From Candidatus Aenigmatarchaeota archaeon (GTDB lineage Archaea; Aenigmatarchaeota; Aenigmatarchaeia; PWEA01), in contig JBKHHE010000004.1 in assembly GCA_046539305.1 (NCBI GenBank), positions 606 through 64,605 on the forward strand: a stretch of DNA of 64,000 bases, in the 5' to 3' direction. Of this stretch, positions 31,666 to 42,287 are shown in pieces. The notes under the pieces were generated by a model. The model searched no databases. It had not been told where the DNA came from and saw only the letters and a list, made by a program, of their open reading frames with translations. The number at the start of each line of letters is the position of its first letter. The stretch's first letter is position 1. The position numbers were made by a program, and so were the translations under genes.

Positions 31666-31710
31666 TGGCGAGTTCAGCAGGATTTGAACCTGCGGTCTTC
31701 TTCAGGGGTG
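31666..31710 (-). tRNA. orphan tRNA 3' fragment or half (T-arm, 3' acceptor strand, G73, encoded CCA)
   Basis: Minus strand reads GCAGG-UUCAAAU-CCUGC-UGAACUC-G-CCA. No complementary 5' acceptor strand (GAGUUCA) lies within about 300 nt on either side. Confidence 0.5.
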
Positions 31711-31792
31711 GATTTATTTCTCTGCTCACCTTCGTCTTTTTTATTCACTTAAACAAAAACTTTATAAAGTTTAGTTTACATACATAAAAACC

Positions 31793-34473: not shown

Positions 34474-35127
34474 ATGAAACTTCCCCTGTTGCTTGTTAAC
34501 TTCAAGACGTACGAGAAGGGAACAGGTCGAAAGGCGGAGGGGCTGGCCAAAACCTGTGAGATGGTTTCCGAGGAAGCAGGTAAGAACATAGTACCTGTGG
34601 TACAGGTTTCGGACCTTTACCGTGTTTCAAATAAAGTGGATATACCTGTCTACGCCCAGAGGATAGATCCCGTCAACTACGGCTCCAACACAGGTCACGT
34701 CCTTCCGAAAGGCCTCAAAGAGAACGGCGCTTCAGGCGTGGTCATAAATCATTCGGAGGACCGCAGGGATATGGAAGTTATTGAAAGTTGTATTAAAAAG
34801 GCAAGCGGACTAGGATTCGATACACTCGTTTGCGCCGAGAGTCCCGAGGAGGCGGGTAAAATTTCTGATCTTGAGCCTGATATGGTGGCGATAGAGCCTC
34901 CGGAGCTGATAGGTGGCGACGTGTCGGTTAGCTCCGCAAGACCTGAGGTAATTACCGATTCACTGGAGAGGGTGAATCGGCCTTTAATATGCGGTGCCGG
35001 AATAAAAAGCAAGGAGGACGTTGAGAAAGCACTGGAGCTGGGAGCGAGAGGGGTTTTTGTGGCCTCGGGTATAGTCAAGGCAGAGGATCCCGAAGAAAGG
35101 ATAAAGGAGCTTGTTGAACCTTTCTGA
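34474..35127 (+). CDS. tpiA: triosephosphate isomerase (short archaeal type)
   Basis: 217 aa with LLVNFKTY, INHSE and CGAGI blocks. Confidence 0.9.
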   Translation: MKLPLLLVNFKTYEKGTGRKAEGLAKTCEMVSEEAGKNIVPVVQVSDLYRVSNKVDIPVYAQRIDPVNYGSNTGHVLPKGLKENGASGVVINHSEDRRDMEVIESCIKKASGLGFDTLVCAESPEEAGKISDLEPDMVAIEPPELIGGDVSVSSARPEVITDSLERVNRPLICGAGIKSKEDVEKALELGARGVFVASGIVKAEDPEERIKELVEPF

Positions 35128-35131
35128 ATCT

Positions 35132-35704
35132 TCAAGTCTTCATCCTCGACAGAACAGGAAATATTCCTAGGAGGAGAAGTCCACAGATAAGGAAGGCGTG
35201 GCTCAGAGTATATATTTCGGCTACCACCCCGGCCACGATAGGTCCTATACCCTGTCCCAGAGATCGTATCGACTGATACGTCCCCGTAGTTTCTCCTTCA
35301 TGTCCTTTTCCCAATTTAGTGATTAGACCCTCTACGGCCGGGGAGATCATCGAGACTCCTATTCCTAGAAGGAGGGTGAGCACAAAGGTGATGGCCAAGG
35401 ATTTCACTACAAACAGGCCAAAAAACAGGGTGGAGGAGATTAACGTTCCGACGCCGATCATTTTCTTCCTTCCCACTTTATCCAAAAGGTCCCCCAGCGG
35501 CGTCTGTATCAATACCTGTATCAGAAACAGTGAACCTATCAGGATGCCTGTAGCCGAATACGTCCCGGTTATCCTTTCAAAGTATATAGAAAAGAAAGGA
35601 CGTATCGCACCCCAGGAGAGATAATATATGAAGAATACCAGACCCAGGGCCCTGAGCTCTTTGGAGATGTCTTCCATCGAAAACTGCCTGAGAAGTCGAA
35701 CCAT
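35132..35704 (-). CDS. MFS transporter, N-terminal six-TM half only (truncated or half-size)
   Basis: 190 aa. MFS motif A GDLLDKVGRKKMIG lies between TM2 and TM3. The ORF stops 4 nt from the converging tpiA stop, leaving no room for TM7-12. Confidence 0.55.
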   Translation of the reverse strand: MVRLLRQFSMEDISKELRALGLVFFIYYLSWGAIRPFFSIYFERITGTYSATGILIGSLFLIQVLIQTPLGDLLDKVGRKKMIGVGTLISSTLFFGLFVVKSLAITFVLTLLLGIGVSMISPAVEGLITKLGKGHEGETTGTYQSIRSLGQGIGPIVAGVVAEIYTLSHAFLICGLLLLGIFPVLSRMKT

Positions 35705-35727
35705 TTCATATTGGGCCCTCCAGTTTT

Positions 35728-36714
35728 CTAGATATATAAGGATCTTTCTGCGCTACCCGTGACCTCGGTTAATTCTGCCAGTACCTTCGAGATCCTTTCT
35801 CTTATACTTTTTGAGACGACCCTTGGATCGAAAACGTCCTTTTTCGGTGTCCAGTCACCTTCTGTGGAGAACACATCTATTTCTTCATCCATCCCGTCAG
35901 GGGGTAGAATTTCTCCTTCATGTTCCCTGTAGAATTCAAACGCAGCCCTAGCGTACTCGTACTGGTACCTTGTGTCCTTATTGAACTTGGAGATGCCCAT
36001 ACCTGCCAGCTTCTTCATCTGATCGCGGGTGAGTCCGGAAGAACCGTGGATTACCAGGGGTCTCTCCAGTCCTTCTTCTATTAGTCTTTTATCCACTTCG
36101 CTGGCTATATCCATTTTCAAGTCCAAGTTCTTTCCTTTGGAAACGCCATGCTGTGTTCCTATGGATGTCGCGAGGAGATCGCAGTCTGTCCTGTCGACGA
36201 ACTCTACGGCTTCTTCGGGTTTCGTGTAGTAGGTTTGGAGGGACTGGACTCTGTCTTCAGCGCCCTTTATCCTCCCGAGTTCCGCCTCTACCAGGATATT
36301 TTTCTTCCTGCAAATTTCCTTGGCTCGTTTCGATTTCTCCACATTCTTTTCAAAAGGTTCCTCCGAGGCGTCTATCATTATGGAGGAGGGTATCCCTGTT
36401 TCAGTTACCTGGTCTATGAAGTCCAGGTCCTTCAGGTGGTCCATGTTCAGGAAGACTCCAATATCGTAATTTCCCGCGATTTCCTCTATGTACTTTCCTA
36501 GGGCTTTCAGGCCTCTGAGGGCGTCTCCGTTCCCGGCAAACTCACAGGCACTCCGGCTGAGCTGGAGGACGAGGTCCGAGTTTTTCCTGTCCGCGCCTTC
36601 GACGAGTCCTATCAACACGTTTGGCTCTGCGAAATTGCTGGCTACGAATGCGTAACCATTATCCTTCGCTCTTTCGTAGACCTTCCTCAGTTCTTCACCA
36701 TCCTTTATGAAGAT
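35728..36714 (-). CDS. fba: class II fructose-bisphosphate aldolase
   Basis: NMDHL, EAELG, IGTQHG and IHGSSG blocks. The conserved N-terminus IFIKDGEELRKVYERAKDNGYAFVASNF lies upstream of the first canonical start (GTG 36618), so the start is uncertain. Confidence 0.78.
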   Translation of the reverse strand: MFIKDGEELRKVYERAKDNGYAFVASNFAEPNVLIGLVEGADRKNSDLVLQLSRSACEFAGNGDALRGLKALGKYIEEIAGNYDIGVFLNMDHLKDLDFIDQVTETGIPSSIMIDASEEPFEKNVEKSKRAKEICRKKNILVEAELGRIKGAEDRVQSLQTYYTKPEEAVEFVDRTDCDLLATSIGTQHGVSKGKNLDLKMDIASEVDKRLIEEGLERPLVIHGSSGLTRDQMKKLAGMGISKFNKDTRYQYEYARAAFEFYREHEGEILPPDGMDEEIDVFSTEGDWTPKKDVFDPRVVSKSIRERISKVLAELTEVTGSAERSLYI

Positions 36715-36718
36715 TTTA

Positions 36719-38062
36719 TCACCTGAGTGCGTTCTCCACTGCGAACGATGTCGCGGATATCACGTCCCCGAGGCCGACGCTCAGCTCCGGGTCCTCGTAT
36801 ATCTTGTTTGGGACCAGAACTATATCAAAGTTGGCGCTGTGGATGCCCTCTTCCTTGAAGTTTTCATCGCTCAGGTATTCGCCCAGCTCCTCCCTGTACT
36901 TTTCCCCCCTTTCGGACGGCTGGACACGCAGCGCTTCTCTGAGGTTTTCCGGAGTCACTTCCCTGCCGCTTGCCTTGGTCCAGACAGCGTTCCTTGCAAA
37001 CTTGAAACCTTCACGGATGGGCTCCGGGTCCACGTAGTCCCTGGAGACAGAGAGAAAGTAATGGTGGGTGTGAATGCTTACTGCGTCTACCCCCAGTTTA
37101 TTAAGCACTCTTTCCATGATCTCCATAAGTTTCACAGGTGAGTCAGGCCCTGGGACCTCGTCGCGGATATCCAGGTCGTCCTCTATAAGGTCAAGTTCAT
37201 TCAGGTCGAATGAGAACACATCTGCGAGAGGGACGACCTCTTTCAGGATAGCTTTCCTTATTTTTTCCCTGTGCGAGGCCGCGAACTCTATCTGTATATT
37301 TGTTTCGGGAGAAACCTTCTTCACGTTTTTTATAAAGTCCTTGGCACTCTCCAGATGCTCTCGCCAGTCGATCCCGTCGGGATACTCTTCCAGGAGGTTA
37401 TGGTAGCCTGCAAGTATCATACAGTCCACCTCCTCCGCGAGCTTCTCCGTTTTACCCTCAATCTCCCCGAGTTCCAGGTTTTCTTGTTTGTAGGGCGAAG
37501 AGGCTATGAACCTGCTGTTGTTCCCGGCTTTCACTCCGAAAAGCTCCTGGCCCTCGAAGAACTCTATTATCCAGTTCTTCTTCGTGGGTATGTCCTTCCA
37601 GCATTTTCTCGGATGTTTGAATTTCAGCTCGCCATCTTCAACGACAGGAAACCGCAGGTTTTCATTGTCCTCAAACAGCGCCGCCTGTTCCTTGGACAGG
37701 TTCGTGGTATAAACTATCGACCGGCAGCCGAGCTTTGAAAGAAGGTTGGGCATTATCCCTGCCTGACCGCCCATCCTCTTCTCATCGCATTTTACATTTT
37801 CCGTCATCCATTTTTTGAGCTCCGGGTTTTCTATCTGTATTTCGTTGCCCATCCCTCTCTCCATGCAGTCCAGAACTCCTGTGAGAAGATCCTCTTTCTC
37901 ATTCAGAAGCTTCGGATCCTGCTCCTTTGCTTTTTCAATCTCGTCCTCCGAGAAAAGACTCCGAAAGTCGTCGTCCACGTGGGTTATGACGTCCGTGTTC
38001 ACATTGTAAGCGAGAAATATAGACAGGCCCTCCAGCTTCTTTAGAGTTTCCTCGAGGCGCAT
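36719..38062 (-). CDS. ADP-dependent sugar kinase (ADP-PFK/ADP-GK family)
   Basis: 447 aa. N-terminal AYNVNTDV and C-terminal VGLGDVISA signature of the archaeal ADP-dependent kinases. Confidence 0.85.
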   Translation of the reverse strand: MRLEETLKKLEGLSIFLAYNVNTDVITHVDDDFRSLFSEDEIEKAKEQDPKLLNEKEDLLTGVLDCMERGMGNEIQIENPELKKWMTENVKCDEKRMGGQAGIMPNLLSKLGCRSIVYTTNLSKEQAALFEDNENLRFPVVEDGELKFKHPRKCWKDIPTKKNWIIEFFEGQELFGVKAGNNSRFIASSPYKQENLELGEIEGKTEKLAEEVDCMILAGYHNLLEEYPDGIDWREHLESAKDFIKNVKKVSPETNIQIEFAASHREKIRKAILKEVVPLADVFSFDLNELDLIEDDLDIRDEVPGPDSPVKLMEIMERVLNKLGVDAVSIHTHHYFLSVSRDYVDPEPIREGFKFARNAVWTKASGREVTPENLREALRVQPSERGEKYREELGEYLSDENFKEEGIHSANFDIVLVPNKIYEDPELSVGLGDVISATSFAVENALR

Positions 38063-38105
38063 AAAGGTTAAATTTAAGTCCTTCTATAAAAATATAGGTG
38101 AAAGG

Positions 38106-38924
38106 ATGATGGACGACGTACCGGAAAAAATAAAAACCAGGGAGGAAGACTCTCACAAGTACGACTTCGGTAGCTTGCTTGTAGTGGGCGGCTCCAAAAC
38201 TTACTCAGGTTCACCAACTTTCAACTCCTTAGCAGCATACCGCAGTGGTGTGGACCTGGTAACAACGGCTTCTCCAAAACGGGCTGCCGACATAATCGCG
38301 AGCTTCTCCCCTTCTCTTATAGTAGAACCGCTGGAGGGCGATTACGTTTCGCCTGAGTACCTCGGTCGCCTTGAAGAACTGGAAGAAAATGCCGACGCAG
38401 TTCTGATAGGTGGCGGCCTGGAAAGGAGGACGGAGACCTTTAAAACGGTCACGGAGTTTCTGAAACAGGTTGAAATACCGGCGGTAATAGATGCCGATGC
38501 GATTCACGCGGTTGCCAGAAACAAGGACATATTAAGAGAAGGCTTCGTACTCACGCCTCATGCACGCGAATTCGAAGTTCTTACGGGTGAAGAGGTCACG
38601 GAGGAAAACGCCAGGAAAGCGGCGGAAGAGCTCGGCTGTGTAATTCTGTTAAAAGGGAAAGAGGACGTAATAACCGATGGCGATGAAGTTCTGAAAAACG
38701 GAACCGGCAACCAGTACATGACAGTCGGCGGAACAGGAGACACCCTCGCAGGTATAGTTGGTTCCCTGCTTGCCCAGGGCCTTGATCCATTGGAAGCGGC
38801 CTATAGAGGTGCCTGGATAAACGGAAAGGCCGGAGAAATCGCTTCTGAGGAAAAAGGCGTCGGCATGCTCCCTGACGACCTTCTGGAAAAGATCCCTCAG
38901 GCAATTCAGGAAAGTGAAGGCTAG
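38106..38924 (+). CDS. ADP-dependent NAD(P)H-hydrate dehydratase (YjeF C-terminal type)
   Basis: HKYDFGSLLVVGGSKTYSGSP and GGTGDTLAG motifs. Confidence 0.85.
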   Translation: MMDDVPEKIKTREEDSHKYDFGSLLVVGGSKTYSGSPTFNSLAAYRSGVDLVTTASPKRAADIIASFSPSLIVEPLEGDYVSPEYLGRLEELEENADAVLIGGGLERRTETFKTVTEFLKQVEIPAVIDADAIHAVARNKDILREGFVLTPHAREFEVLTGEEVTEENARKAAEELGCVILLKGKEDVITDGDEVLKNGTGNQYMTVGGTGDTLAGIVGSLLAQGLDPLEAAYRGAWINGKAGEIASEEKGVGMLPDDLLEKIPQAIQESEG

Positions 38925-39397
38925 TCCAGGCTTATTATCTGTGCTTCCATTTTCTCCAGGTTTACTAAAGCCACAGTTTTCTCTCCCGTGAGCCATCCCG
39001 AAGCCTCGCCTGGATTGATGGAAACAGCACCGTCCTTCTTCTCGACTTTGGGCTCGTGTGTGTGGCCGTTTACGAGGAGGTCGAAATCACCTTCGACTTT
39101 TTCCCCTGGCTTATGTGTGAGGCGGACCCTTTTCCCTTTAACCTCCAGTGAAGTTGGAGCTTCTTCTATTTTACCGAAGTCGCTGACCTCCTCCTTTAGA
39201 CCTTCCTTCTCTCCATCATTATTCCCGAAAACGCCGTGGAAGTCGCCCTCTAGTTTCGAGAATTTTTCCAGTGCAAATGGAGCCACGTAGTCGCCGGCGT
39301 GCAGAACTAGGTCTGCACCTCTCTCGTTGAACTCCTCCACGGCCTTCTCTATCGCGGGCAAGTTGTCGTGCGTGTCCGATACTATTCCAACTAGCAT
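38921..39397 (-). CDS. MJ0936/YfcE-family metallophosphoesterase
   Basis: SDTHDN, GDYV, GNNDG and GHTH motifs. 158 aa. Confidence 0.85.
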   Translation of the reverse strand: MLVGIVSDTHDNLPAIEKAVEEFNERGADLVLHAGDYVAPFALEKFSKLEGDFHGVFGNNDGEKEGLKEEVSDFGKIEEAPTSLEVKGKRVRLTHKPGEKVEGDFDLLVNGHTHEPKVEKKDGAVSINPGEASGWLTGEKTVALVNLEKMEAQIISLD

Positions 39398-39401
39398 GGT
39401 G

Positions 39402-40577
39402 TCATCTCAGGGCTTTCATCCCCACTAGTTCTTCACCGAGCAGAGCCTTTACAAAAGCTCCCCCTGCCAAAGAAACGTGCGAATAGTCCTCATCTATGTC
39501 GAATCCAAGCTGCTCTATGGCTTCCGATGTGTCCCCTCCCCCTATAAGCACATATTTATCCAGTTTTTTAAGACGCTCGAATATCTTCTCCGTACCTTTG
39601 CTGAAGTTATCGTCCTCGAACTTTCCAACAGGTCCGTTCATCACGACGGTTTCAGCATCGCTCAGTCTACTGTTGAATTTTTCTATGGTTTCCGTCCCTA
39701 TATCGAACACTTCCTCCCTCACAGGCAGTGACTTGACGTCTACTTCCTCTCTCATCCGGTTTTTCTCATAGGCCAGGTCCTCAGGGAGTAGTATCTTGTT
39801 GCCGTAGCCGCCCAAAAGCTCCTGTATTTTCCCCTCAAGCTCGCTGACATCACGCTCCTTCGGACCCAGGTCTTTGTCCTGCACCTGAAGGAAGATTTCC
39901 CCTGGTGCACCTCCGAGCATGGCCAGGTCTGCTATATCTTCTTCGAAGACCTTGTGCAGAACATTTACGGCGTCCTTGGGCTTGTTCCCGCCGAGGACAA
40001 ACTGTCTTGGTCTCCTAGTCTCTTCCAGGTTTCTTATCGCCTCCATGTCCTTCTCAAGCACGGGCCCAGCTGCACTTTCCATTACCTGTGGAAAGCCGGT
40101 TATAGAGGCATGGTTTCTATGACATACGGAAAAGGCGTCGTTGACGTACAGGTCACACCAGCTCGACAGCTTCTGTACAAGCTCCGATACCGCATGCTCC
40201 TCGGGACTTCTCTCCGCGAGCTCGTCGTCGTGCATCCTCACGTTGTCGAGGAGTAGTACGTCTTCCTCCTGAAGCTCTCCTACTGCTTTTTCAGCTAGCT
40301 CGCCGGCTATGTCTTCGATGAATATTACTCTTCTGTCGAGGAGGTGGTTCAGGTGCTCCGCGTGCTGTTCCAGATGTAAAAAGTCGTCCCTGCCAGGTCT
40401 TCCCTGATGCGCCAGGACAACCACTGCTGCACTTCTTTCACAGAGCTCCTCTATGGTTTTTGCGTGCGCCTTCATCCGCGGAGTCAGCTTGACCCTTCCC
40501 TGCTTGACCGTAGAATTGAGGTCGACCCTCAGGAGTACTTTCTTCCCCTCTACGTCCACGTTTTCCATGGACTTCAT
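39402..40577 (-). CDS. pgk: phosphoglycerate kinase
   Basis: LRVDLNS, AHQGRPG and IGGGDT blocks. 1 nt downstream of gap. Confidence 0.9.
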   Translation of the reverse strand: MKSMENVDVEGKKVLLRVDLNSTVKQGRVKLTPRMKAHAKTIEELCERSAAVVVLAHQGRPGRDDFLHLEQHAEHLNHLLDRRVIFIEDIAGELAEKAVGELQEEDVLLLDNVRMHDDELAERSPEEHAVSELVQKLSSWCDLYVNDAFSVCHRNHASITGFPQVMESAAGPVLEKDMEAIRNLEETRRPRQFVLGGNKPKDAVNVLHKVFEEDIADLAMLGGAPGEIFLQVQDKDLGPKERDVSELEGKIQELLGGYGNKILLPEDLAYEKNRMREEVDVKSLPVREEVFDIGTETIEKFNSRLSDAETVVMNGPVGKFEDDNFSKGTEKIFERLKKLDKYVLIGGGDTSEAIEQLGFDIDEDYSHVSLAGGAFVKALLGEELVGMKALR

Positions 40578-40578
40578 C

Positions 40579-41571
40579 TCATAGCAGCTCCTTCATAACA
40601 TCTATCATTCTGCAGGAGAAGCCCCACTCGTTGTCGTACCATCCGAGGACCTTGACCTGCTGTCCTATCTGCATGGTCTTCTTCCCGTCGACGACCACGG
40701 AGTGTGGGTCCTGAATTATGTCCCTGGAGACGATTTCTTCTTCGGTGTATCCCAGGACGCCCTCGAGCTCTCCCCTGGCAGCTTCTTTGAAGGCTCCGTT
40801 GATCTCTTCTTCGGACGCCTCTTCCTCCAGGTTGACCACGAAGTCGGTCACCGAACCGTCGGGGACGGGAACTCTCATGGCTATACCATCCAGTTTTCCT
40901 TTCAGCTCCGGTATAACTTCCGTTACCGCCTGCGCTGCTCCCGTGGTCGTAGGTATTATATTCTCTGCCGCGGCCCTTCTCCTCCTGGGCTTGGGATTGG
41001 GTCCGTCGACAAGGTTCTGTGTGCTCGTGTAGGCGTGGACTGTCGTTATCACACCTTCCTTTATCCCGAACTCATCGTGGAGAACCTTCACCATGGGCGC
41101 CATGGAGTTGGTCGTGCAGGATGCGTTGTCCACTATGTTGTGTTCCCGTGGATCGTATTCGTCTTCGTTTACTCCGTAAACAATTGATGGGACTTCGCCT
41201 TCCCCTTTGGAGGGCGCGGAAATAACTACCTTCTTGGCACCTGCTTCCAGGTGCTTGGCTGCGTCCTCCTTCTTTCTGAAAATTCCTGTCGACTCACAGG
41301 CGACGTCAACGTCCATCTCGTCCCAAGGAAGCTCTTCTGGGCTCTTTTCCTGCAGCAGTTTTATCTCCTCTCCGTCGACTGTCAGCTCTCCGTCCCTTAC
41401 TTTTACGTCCTTCTCGTACCTCCCGTAGACGGAGTCGTGCTTAAGAAGGTAGACAAGTTCTTCGGGCTCCAGTAGGTCATTTATCGCGACAAAGTTTATC
41501 TCGGGGTCTTCGAGGCCGGCCTTGAAAACAGCCCTCCCTATTCTTCCAAATCCGTTTATGGCAACCTTCAT
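40579..41571 (-). CDS. gap: glyceraldehyde-3-phosphate dehydrogenase, type I (bacterial/eukaryal-like)
   Basis: INGFGRIGR and ASCTTN active-site blocks. 330 aa. Confidence 0.92.
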   Translation of the reverse strand: MKVAINGFGRIGRAVFKAGLEDPEINFVAINDLLEPEELVYLLKHDSVYGRYEKDVKVRDGELTVDGEEIKLLQEKSPEELPWDEMDVDVACESTGIFRKKEDAAKHLEAGAKKVVISAPSKGEGEVPSIVYGVNEDEYDPREHNIVDNASCTTNSMAPMVKVLHDEFGIKEGVITTVHAYTSTQNLVDGPNPKPRRRRAAAENIIPTTTGAAQAVTEVIPELKGKLDGIAMRVPVPDGSVTDFVVNLEEEASEEEINGAFKEAARGELEGVLGYTEEEIVSRDIIQDPHSVVVDGKKTMQIGQQVKVLGWYDNEWGFSCRMIDVMKELL

Positions 41572-41662
41572 CTATCTCACCCTTTATACTCTTTCCGGTG
41601 TTTCCTATAAAAAAGTAAACCCGAGTGGAAAGTAGAATTACGACCTTTCGGTTCTCACGAAA

Positions 41663-41676
41663 TTTTTAAATATTTC
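41663..41676 (+). promoter_or_regulatory. TATA-like box TTTTTAAATATTT for the downstream ncRNA
   Basis: Same motif class as at the protein-gene promoters. About 20-25 nt upstream of the first base-paired nucleotide of the RNA. Confidence 0.5.
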
Positions 41677-41690
41677 CAGAACTAATATCA

Positions 41691-41865
41691 GCTTCCCTGG
41701 TGTGGACGAGGGAGTCTATCGAAACACCTGCAGGGCGACCTGCAAGGCCAAGTAAGGAAGGGTTCGGCAACGAACCTGGACCGAAAAGTCTGTGGGGTGT
41801 GGATGGACAGAATATAAGGGAGGACCAAAACTTCCTTGACCTCCAAGCACCAGGGACTAGTTTTC
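41691..41865 (+). ncRNA. structured ncRNA of about 165 nt; RNase P RNA-like sequence blocks (possibly a strongly reduced RNase P RNA)
   Basis: Closing helix CCCUGGUG/CACCAGGG followed by UUUU. Two GNRA-capped hairpins. A 12-bp long-range helix. GCAAGGCCAAGUAAGG resembles the RNase P block GCAAGGCCAAAUAGGG. The ORFs overlapping it have a non-protein-like composition. Confidence 0.6.
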
Positions 41866-42080
41866 TCTCGACTCAATACTTCCGACAGGTACAGTTAAGG
41901 AAGGTATTTCCCCCACTCACACTTTCGTTCGTCTCCAGTTCTGTTATTTCACTGTCAGGCCTTACTCTAAAGCCGTCTTCGCCTTCGTCCGCTTATGTGC
42001 TATCGAGACATAAAAACTTTGTTTTTTGGGCGCTCGTGCCCTTCCAAAAAATTATAAACAGTGAAACCACTTAACAGTTC

Positions 42081-42287
42081 ATGGGCGAGAAAAAGAGACT
42101 TTACAGGACCGAAGGCAAAGACAGGATGCTCGGCGGGGTATGTGGAGGCATAGCCGAGTATTTCGACGTAGATCCTACACTTGTAAGGCTTCTCTGGGTA
42201 TTCTTCACACTCGGTTTCGGCGGGGGCCTTCTCGCCTACATAATAGCCCTGATAATCGTTCCCAATAAGTCAGAGGTAAAGAAATAA
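42081..42287 (+). CDS. PspC-domain membrane protein
   Basis: GKDRMLGGVCGGIAEYFDVDPTLVRLLWV followed by a TM helix. Confidence 0.8.
   Translation: MGEKKRLYRTEGKDRMLGGVCGGIAEYFDVDPTLVRLLWVFFTLGFGGGLLAYIIALIIVPNKSEVKK

Follow-up and report, generated by a model that had tools for sequence, protein, structure and literature searches.

A stretch of 175 nt on the plus strand (positions 41691-41865) of a 64-kb window, by which we mean the whole stretch of DNA that was analysed, comes from a salt-lake Aenigmatarchaeota-like archaeon with a 0.70-Mb genome and has the features of an RNA gene. The question raised by this locus is what kind of RNA it would encode, since the first-pass annotation had left two alternatives, a drastically minimised RNase P RNA or an undescribed structured RNA. 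The structured element itself was confirmed. The RNase P half of the proposal fell, given a canonical copy elsewhere in the genome and the absence of an Rfam match here, whilst an undescribed structured RNA stands as the best reading, and nothing on such an RNA was found in the literature.

RNAfold gave a minimum free energy (MFE) of -73 kcal/mol for the plus strand of 41691-41865, with the centroid identical to the MFE structure and a z-score of -4.64, none of 200 dinucleotide shuffles (0/200) being as stable. The reverse complement folded much less well (-56.6 kcal/mol, z = -2.07), in keeping with the seven G.U pairs in the plus-strand model, these becoming A.C mismatches on the opposite strand. 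The architecture listed earlier for the element was recovered by RNAfold unaided (Table 1) and its parts are present as they had been quoted: the closing helix CCCTGGTG (41695-41702) with CACCAGGG (41848-41855), quoted also as CCCUGGUG/CACCAGGG; the interrupted 12-bp long-range helix of GUCUAUC-GAA-ACACC (41714-41728) with GGUGU-G-GAUGGAC (41796-41808); the first GNRA hairpin, UGCAGG-GCGA-CCUGCA (41729-41744), and the second, which is P5 of our model; and the AAGGGAG/CUUCCUU hairpin (41816-41837). P1 and P2 are separated by a 4x3-nt internal loop (GGAC/CAA), the P7 loop and the P6 hairpin have ACC(G)AAAA in common, and both of the 4-nt hairpin loops (2/2) are of the GNRA type, for which the chance expectation is approximately 1/32 each. 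A BHB (splicing or circularisation) motif at the base of P1/P2 could be drawn solely in a non-canonical version with a 2-nt bulge.

Table 1. Features of the candidate locus and of a hairpin family elsewhere in the genome. Positions are those of the window unless a contig is named.
Feature	Position	Strand	Sequence and description	Basis
Archaeal-type promoter, BRE-like plus TATA	41656-41675	+	Purine-rich CACGAAA, then TTTTTAAATATTT	Sequence
Predicted transcribed unit	41691-41865	+	Self-contained multi-branched RNA, ~165-175 nt	Fold statistics
P1, 5' strand	41694-41703	+	UCCCUGGUGU; pairs with 41847-41856, joining both RNA ends	RNAfold
P2, 5' strand	41708-41711	+	GAGG; pairs with CCUC at 41840-41843	RNAfold
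P3/P3b, 5' strand	41714-41729	+	GUCUAUC-GAA-ACACCU; pairs with 41795-41808 and carries the four-way junction	RNAfold
P4 hairpin	41730-41743	+	GCAGG-GCGA-CCUGC; GNRA loop at 41735-41738	Sequence, RNAfold
J4/5	41744-41759	+	AAGGCCAAGUAAGGAA; sole long unpaired stretch (16 nt), purine-rich, includes the CR-III-like block	
P5 hairpin	41760-41777	+	GGGUUCG-GCAA-CGAACCU; GNRA loop at 41767-41770	Sequence, RNAfold
P6 hairpin	41778-41791	+	GGAC-CGAAAA-GUCU	RNAfold
P3b/P3, 3' strand	41795-41808	+	GGGUGU-G-GAUGGAC	RNAfold
P7 hairpin	41815-41838	+	UAAGGGAG-GACCAAAA-CUUCCUUG	RNAfold
P2, 3' strand	41840-41843	+	CCUC	RNAfold
P1, 3' strand	41847-41856	+	GCACCAGGGA	RNAfold
3' end signal	41857-41865	+	CUAGUUUUC; predicted oligo-U terminator	Same motif at the RNase P RNA end
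Downstream pyrimidine-rich spacer	41866-42045	+	180 nt outside the fold; unstructured, z = +1.21	
GACGUGG hairpin copies	G000:C2:33919-34745, C2:45426-45552, C2:68950-68970, C12:1420-1440		Outside the window	

The fold does not extend beyond 41691-41865, since the spacer downstream is unstructured and the fold signal is gone from a 342-nt span running from the candidate to the next U-run (z = 0.03). G+C content reaches its maximum of 0.54 over the element and the flanks are AT-richer. In a scan of the genome comprising 23,106 windows of 175 nt the exact candidate ranked 11th after G+C correction, in the company of rRNA, RNase P RNA, SRP RNA and intron-bearing tRNA genes and also of a handful of windows inside long ORFs; because the latter score as well, fold stability alone is suggestive rather than decisive.

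The TATA-like TTTTTAAATATTT that had been claimed upstream was found on inspection at 41663-41675, and near-identical copies of this TATA box occur at other promoter-like sites of the same genome. Its TTTAAA core lies 26-30 nt from the first paired bases of the candidate, and the TATA-box distances at the stable-RNA genes of this organism are 33 nt for RNase P, 28 for SRP, 32 for 5S and 33 for tRNA-Gln. At the other end of the element the U-run said to follow the closing helix is present as TTTT (41861-41864). The identical 9-mer CUAGUUUUC also stands 3' of the RNase P RNA gene, with CUAUUUUC 3' of the SRP RNA gene; genome-wide the 9-mer occurs five times, which equals the chance expectation, and two of the five are at the 3' ends of the candidate and of RNase P RNA. 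We define a stand-alone stable-RNA gene of this genome operationally as a unit with BRE/TATA ~30 nt upstream, an oligo-U stop immediately 3' of the terminal helix and a stable, strand-specific fold in non-coding sequence, and the candidate belongs to this class. We infer that it is transcribed, in which case transcription would start ~26-30 nt past the BRE/TATA box and would stop at the U-run in CUAGUUUUC. As a separate observation, a 3' flank motif of the form CUA(G)UUUUC is common to RNase P RNA (G000:C2:34787), SRP RNA (C7:21170) and the candidate (41857-41865), and the 3' flank of the 5S rRNA gene reads GCUAUUUAUUC; flanks of the CUA(G)UUUUC type may be a preferred stop signal of stable-RNA genes in this organism.

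The reading of the element as a drastically minimised RNase P RNA is refuted on the terms that the first-pass annotation had itself set: another contig carries a canonical archaeal RNase P RNA (G000:C2:34357-34787; RF00373, 92 bits versus a cut-off of 84), and no Rfam RNase P model matches at this locus. The genome's real RNase P RNA measures 431 nt, has recognisable CR-I, CR-IV and CR-V and allows a P4 to be drawn (AGCUCCUCC/GGAGGGCU). Rfam at the gathering threshold gave no match anywhere in the 64-kb window, and under permissive filters (E <= 10) 0 of 4,227 families matched the plus strand of a 601-nt region or of the 181-nt element. Among the RNase P models (RF00373, RF02357, RF00010, RF00011 and RF00009) none matches the candidate locus at E <= 10 and none reaches ~10 bits there, nor is the locus among the matches of a genome-wide RF00373 search at E <= 10. 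A weak second RF00373 match elsewhere (G000:C9:26759-26935 (+), 12 bits, E = 0.09) is spurious by our reading, lying inside acidic repetitive protein-coding sequence with an open frame seen on the opposite strand only. The genome also encodes the protein subunits Rpp29 (81 bits) and Rpp30 (119 bits), which counts against a minimised RNase P.

The three RNase P-like blocks, resembling CR-I, CR-III and CR-IV/V, do occur as they had been quoted, but their likeness to RNase P does not rise above chance. The best local alignment between the candidate and the organism's own RNase P RNA is the CR-III-like block (12/14 bases, score 18.0), and among 300 shuffled queries aligned to the same RNA the mean score was 17.97, with 153/300 reaching the score of the candidate. 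That no canonical P4 can be drawn, as had been conceded from the outset, was borne out by inspection: a P4 would need CR-I to pair with CR-V around a bulged U, but GAGGGAGUCUAUC finds no partner in what follows ACAGAA (AUAUAAGGGAGG), the sequence there is not complementary to GAGGGAGUC either, and in the predicted fold GUCUAUC of the candidate pairs with GAUGGAC, upstream of AGAA. Compared with archaeal RNase P RNA (RF00373; type T, RF02357) the candidate is similar in being a stand-alone stable-RNA gene with like promoter spacing and the CUAGUUUUC end of the organism's own RNase P gene, in its few short look-alike blocks and in having its ends closed by a terminal helix, but it differs in having no covariance-model match, no P4 pseudoknot and no homologues in relatives, and its length is ~40% of that of the real 431-nt RNA.

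The absence of homologues was established with a single-sequence covariance model of the candidate (54 pairs). Searched against 60 close relatives this model found nothing but the candidate itself, and against the 370 genomes of the class it again found only the candidate, two weak matches lying inside ORFs; run with filters off on 21 syntenic or viral loci (the GAPDH- and MscS-flanking regions of relatives plus two viral contigs sharing a 17-mer) it gave nothing above 10 bits. A control model, for which a closed 175-nt sub-domain of the organism's own SRP RNA was treated identically, recovered the SRP homologue in 46 of the 60 relatives and scored 137-174 bits in six of seven same-genus genomes, so the negative result is not a failure of sensitivity, though SRP RNA is an unusually conserved yardstick. 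BLASTN against 40 relatives returned short matches only, all within coding DNA, and no relative of the candidate came from blastn against phages and plasmids or from exact-pattern scans of metagenome and viral contigs. In the genome itself nhmmer and short-word BLAST revealed no second copy, the sole intragenomic BLAST match (C1:23777-23807) falling inside a MazG-like ORF. Thus, no conserved structured RNA family emerged, there being no homologue with compensatory changes in the 370 class genomes, the syntenic loci or the other collections. Four other assemblies of the species carry the locus, but as their intergenic region is identical they are uninformative on variation; over 7 kb around the locus the same-species assemblies show 1-3 base differences, all in MscS.

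The surroundings of the candidate (window 34474-42287) were compared with those in relatives. It lies in an intergenic gap of 509 nt, which is long for a 0.7-Mb genome, and the other half of the gap is unstructured and has the base skew of a minus-strand gene. The type I GAPDH gene beside the candidate is absent from all same-genus and all eight same-family genomes. The exact GAPDH protein occurs in four further assemblies, its closest named relatives are proteins of Aenigmatarchaeota MAGs (62-63% identity), its best relatives include those of haloarchaea (59-63%), and no RNA lies upstream of the nearest other GAPDHs (65-68% identity). Same-genus genomes keep the block SMC-flavin reductase (FlavRed)-Dph6-MscS and past MscS carry other genes. 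The 3' end of MscS is precisely where gene order breaks. On the side of the RNA every relative differs, their MscS-flanking loci yielded no pspC, and a search for related loci via MscS yielded distant haloarchaeal genes only. Since the block is kept and the genes beyond MscS differ, the candidate is located at a gene-order breakpoint, on the edge of a glycolytic island which looks lineage-specific or horizontally acquired. This position fits a recent acquisition, but leftover DNA as well.

Other known RNA classes were considered in turn and rejected. SRP RNA and 5S rRNA have copies of their own in the genome (C7:21170-21436, 129.6 bits, and C2:68663-68777, 64.5 bits, respectively) and neither model matches the candidate. 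ARAGORN found no tRNA in the window, none after every single deletion of the candidate and none among ~5 million two-deletion variants per strand, whilst the same double-deletion scan applied as a positive control to a known two-intron tRNA of this genome gave 2,180 matches; low-threshold ARAGORN calls at the candidate had mismatched stems and starts inside the promoter. Neither strand carries a T-loop (GUUCRA), a D-loop (A14, G18G19 in context) or a T-stem beside the closing helix, and the Rfam tRNA models gave no match at the candidate (E <= 10); with Rfam, intron-bearing tRNAs at other loci of the genome obtain 38-57 bits. The deletion scans and the missing signatures rule out a tRNA with up to two introns, the exclusion of one with three or more resting solely on the absence of the T-loop motif rather than on an exhaustive search. 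A split-tRNA partner was rejected for lack of complementarity to the orphan tRNA 3' half at 31666-31735. By inspection, the 175 nt contain no C/D guide boxes (no UGAUGA, no CUGA), no ACA at the 3' end as in an H/ACA guide and no drawable kink-turn in its tandem G.A version, and no riboswitch in Rfam matches the candidate. The candidate does share with the multiple-intron tRNA genes of this genome and of Thermoproteales the character of a promoter-driven, strongly folding intergenic unit (120-260 nt in those genes) that escapes standard finders, with a terminal 7-10-bp helix, but unlike them it lacks a T-loop, a D-loop and U8/A14, and no one or two excisions turn it into a tRNA. Among the tRNA genes of this genome, the Rfam matches at G000:C2:68978-69118, C2:96518-96633, C12:1097-1266 and C2:45458-45593 are 116-170 nt long, implying introns of 45-100 nt, and at least one of these genes (that on C12) is interrupted twice.

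Several explanations have to be weighed against a genuine RNA gene, of which a minimised RNase P RNA or a diverged RNase P paralogue is scarcely conceivable. The short blocks, and a promoter and terminator in the same style as those of the real RNase P gene, speak for such a derivative, but it would have to coexist with the canonical RNA and the Rpp29 and Rpp30 genes, to resemble its parent no more than a shuffled sequence does, to do without P4 and, as an essential RNA would not be, to be missing from all relatives. In practical terms the chief outcome is negative: this lineage is without a miniature RNase P, and the case cautions that short RNase P-like blocks arise by chance. That the locus is a known small RNA (a tRNA, for instance) interrupted by at least three introns is very improbable: intron-bearing tRNA genes are indeed among the best-folding windows of the genome and the closing helix could pass as an acceptor stem plus discriminator base, yet the signature loops, the adjoining T-stem and the C/D and H/ACA boxes are all missing, and the ARAGORN and Rfam searches described above were negative. 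The locus could alternatively be read as a message, since an open frame of 124 codons (41700-42074 (+)) crosses the candidate and the spacer. For a leaderless mRNA one can point to a GTG 25-30 nt after the TATA box, to a stop followed 3 nt on by the ATG of pspC, and to the length of the frame, one of ~134 codons being uncommon where DNA is non-coding (about 1% across six frames). The start codon would however be buried in the 10-bp P1 helix, and the codon score of -0.03 per codon falls below that of all 564 real-gene windows (0.35 +/- 0.11, minimum -0.009). The D+E content of 7% versus 18.6% for the genome gives a non-acidic composition in an acidic proteome, there is no Pfam match, and none of three independent assemblies spanning the locus has a gene called here. 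By codon usage and amino-acid composition the frame is clearly non-coding, which leaves a leaderless mRNA exceedingly improbable, and the frame may be what is left of a former gene.

A regulatory element in cis, that is, the structured 5' domain of a longer transcript with partial termination, acting like a leader or riboswitch on the spacer or on pspC, is improbable as well, if less so. The U-run has just four U's, and a stronger UUUGUUUUUU follows at ~42020-42029, upstream of pspC, which lies downstream on the same strand as the candidate. Against this, the RNase P and SRP RNA genes of the organism likewise end in four U's within the same motif, pspC has a TATA-like AAAAATTATAAAC of its own ~25 nt ahead of the start codon, the spacer lacks structure, folding it jointly with the candidate gives no signal, and no Rfam riboswitch matches. 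The main rival, unlikely but to be taken seriously, is a functionless relic, in which decayed or rearranged DNA between the conserved block and the glycolytic island folds by chance behind an AT-rich TATA-like stretch. The restriction to one species despite a search that demonstrably works, the breakpoint, where junk DNA is plausible and beyond which same-genus genomes differ and have no type I GAPDH, the long gap with its unstructured, skewed other half, and the 124-codon open frame across a region whose fold some coding windows equal are all points in its favour. What tells against a relic is that chance would have to supply jointly a consensus promoter at the right distance, the 3' motif of the RNase P gene, GNRA loops in 2/2 cases, a fold whose limits coincide exactly with the signals and a strong asymmetry between strands, and that no protein homology or coding signal remains. 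On balance, we therefore regard the element as somewhat more likely than not to be a genuine, independently transcribed and unclassified structured RNA gene, restricted within the collections searched to this species.

Were the element such an RNA gene, its 5' and 3' ends would be locked by a 10-13-bp helix and the RNA should be stable. Its long arm would bear a four-way junction with the two GNRA-capped hairpins, two more hairpins would present similar A-rich loops, and one purine-rich junction of 16 nt would stay exposed. Closed ends, GNRA loops and almost no free sequence point most likely to a stable protein-bound or tertiary-folded accessory RNA that would act in trans, an antisense regulator fitting this anatomy poorly. 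Because the relatives lack it, the RNA would be accessory rather than core, and recently acquired or evolved. The order junction-hairpin-junction-hairpin-hairpin recalls what we take to be the arrangement of the specificity domain of bacterial type A RNase P RNA, and it is a long shot that the junction-hairpin-junction core mimics the tRNA-elbow-docking module of that domain, the RNA then being an accessory one for tRNA binding or pre-tRNA handling. The tRNA genes of the genome in which this accessory RNA would operate are unusually rich in introns. A closer parallel may be sought among lineage-specific archaeal RNAs such as the Hgc RNAs, which are reportedly small archaeal RNAs found by G+C screens in hyperthermophiles. 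Like these, the candidate is small and stable-looking, has its own transcription signals and came to light through composition and structure rather than function, whereas Hgc-type families show conservation over a genus or more and are backed by evidence of expression, the candidate being known from one species and from sequence alone. If real, it would add one more unclassified structured RNA to those of the little-studied DPANN archaea, and even a 0.7-Mb symbiont genome could hold a species-specific, ornately folded RNA gene.

Further structured elements were observed in the same genome. A second unannotated intergenic unit of ~245 nt (G000:C2:68345-68590 (+); L158:546-791) lies just upstream of the 5S rRNA gene, with GATTTATAAAAATAAAC upstream and GUCUAUUUU at its end; it folds with z = -3.69 (0/200 shuffles as good) and has no match in Rfam. 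The best-folding window of the whole genome (G000:C6:37750-38200 (-)), near a contig end and likewise with no Rfam match, contains several GC-rich hairpins that are perfect, GGAAGGGCGG-loop-CCGCCCTTCC being one of them, with T-runs after them. Finally, a family of near-perfect hairpins of the form GACGUGG(N)-loop-(N)CCACGUC is present in eight copies, every one inside or adjoining a stable-RNA gene. The 431-nt RNase P RNA contains three as insertions and has a fourth immediately upstream, a single tRNA has one copy upstream and another in its intron, and the remaining two stand upstream of other tRNAs. These hairpins may act as a signal for processing or protein binding, or may represent a small insertion element.
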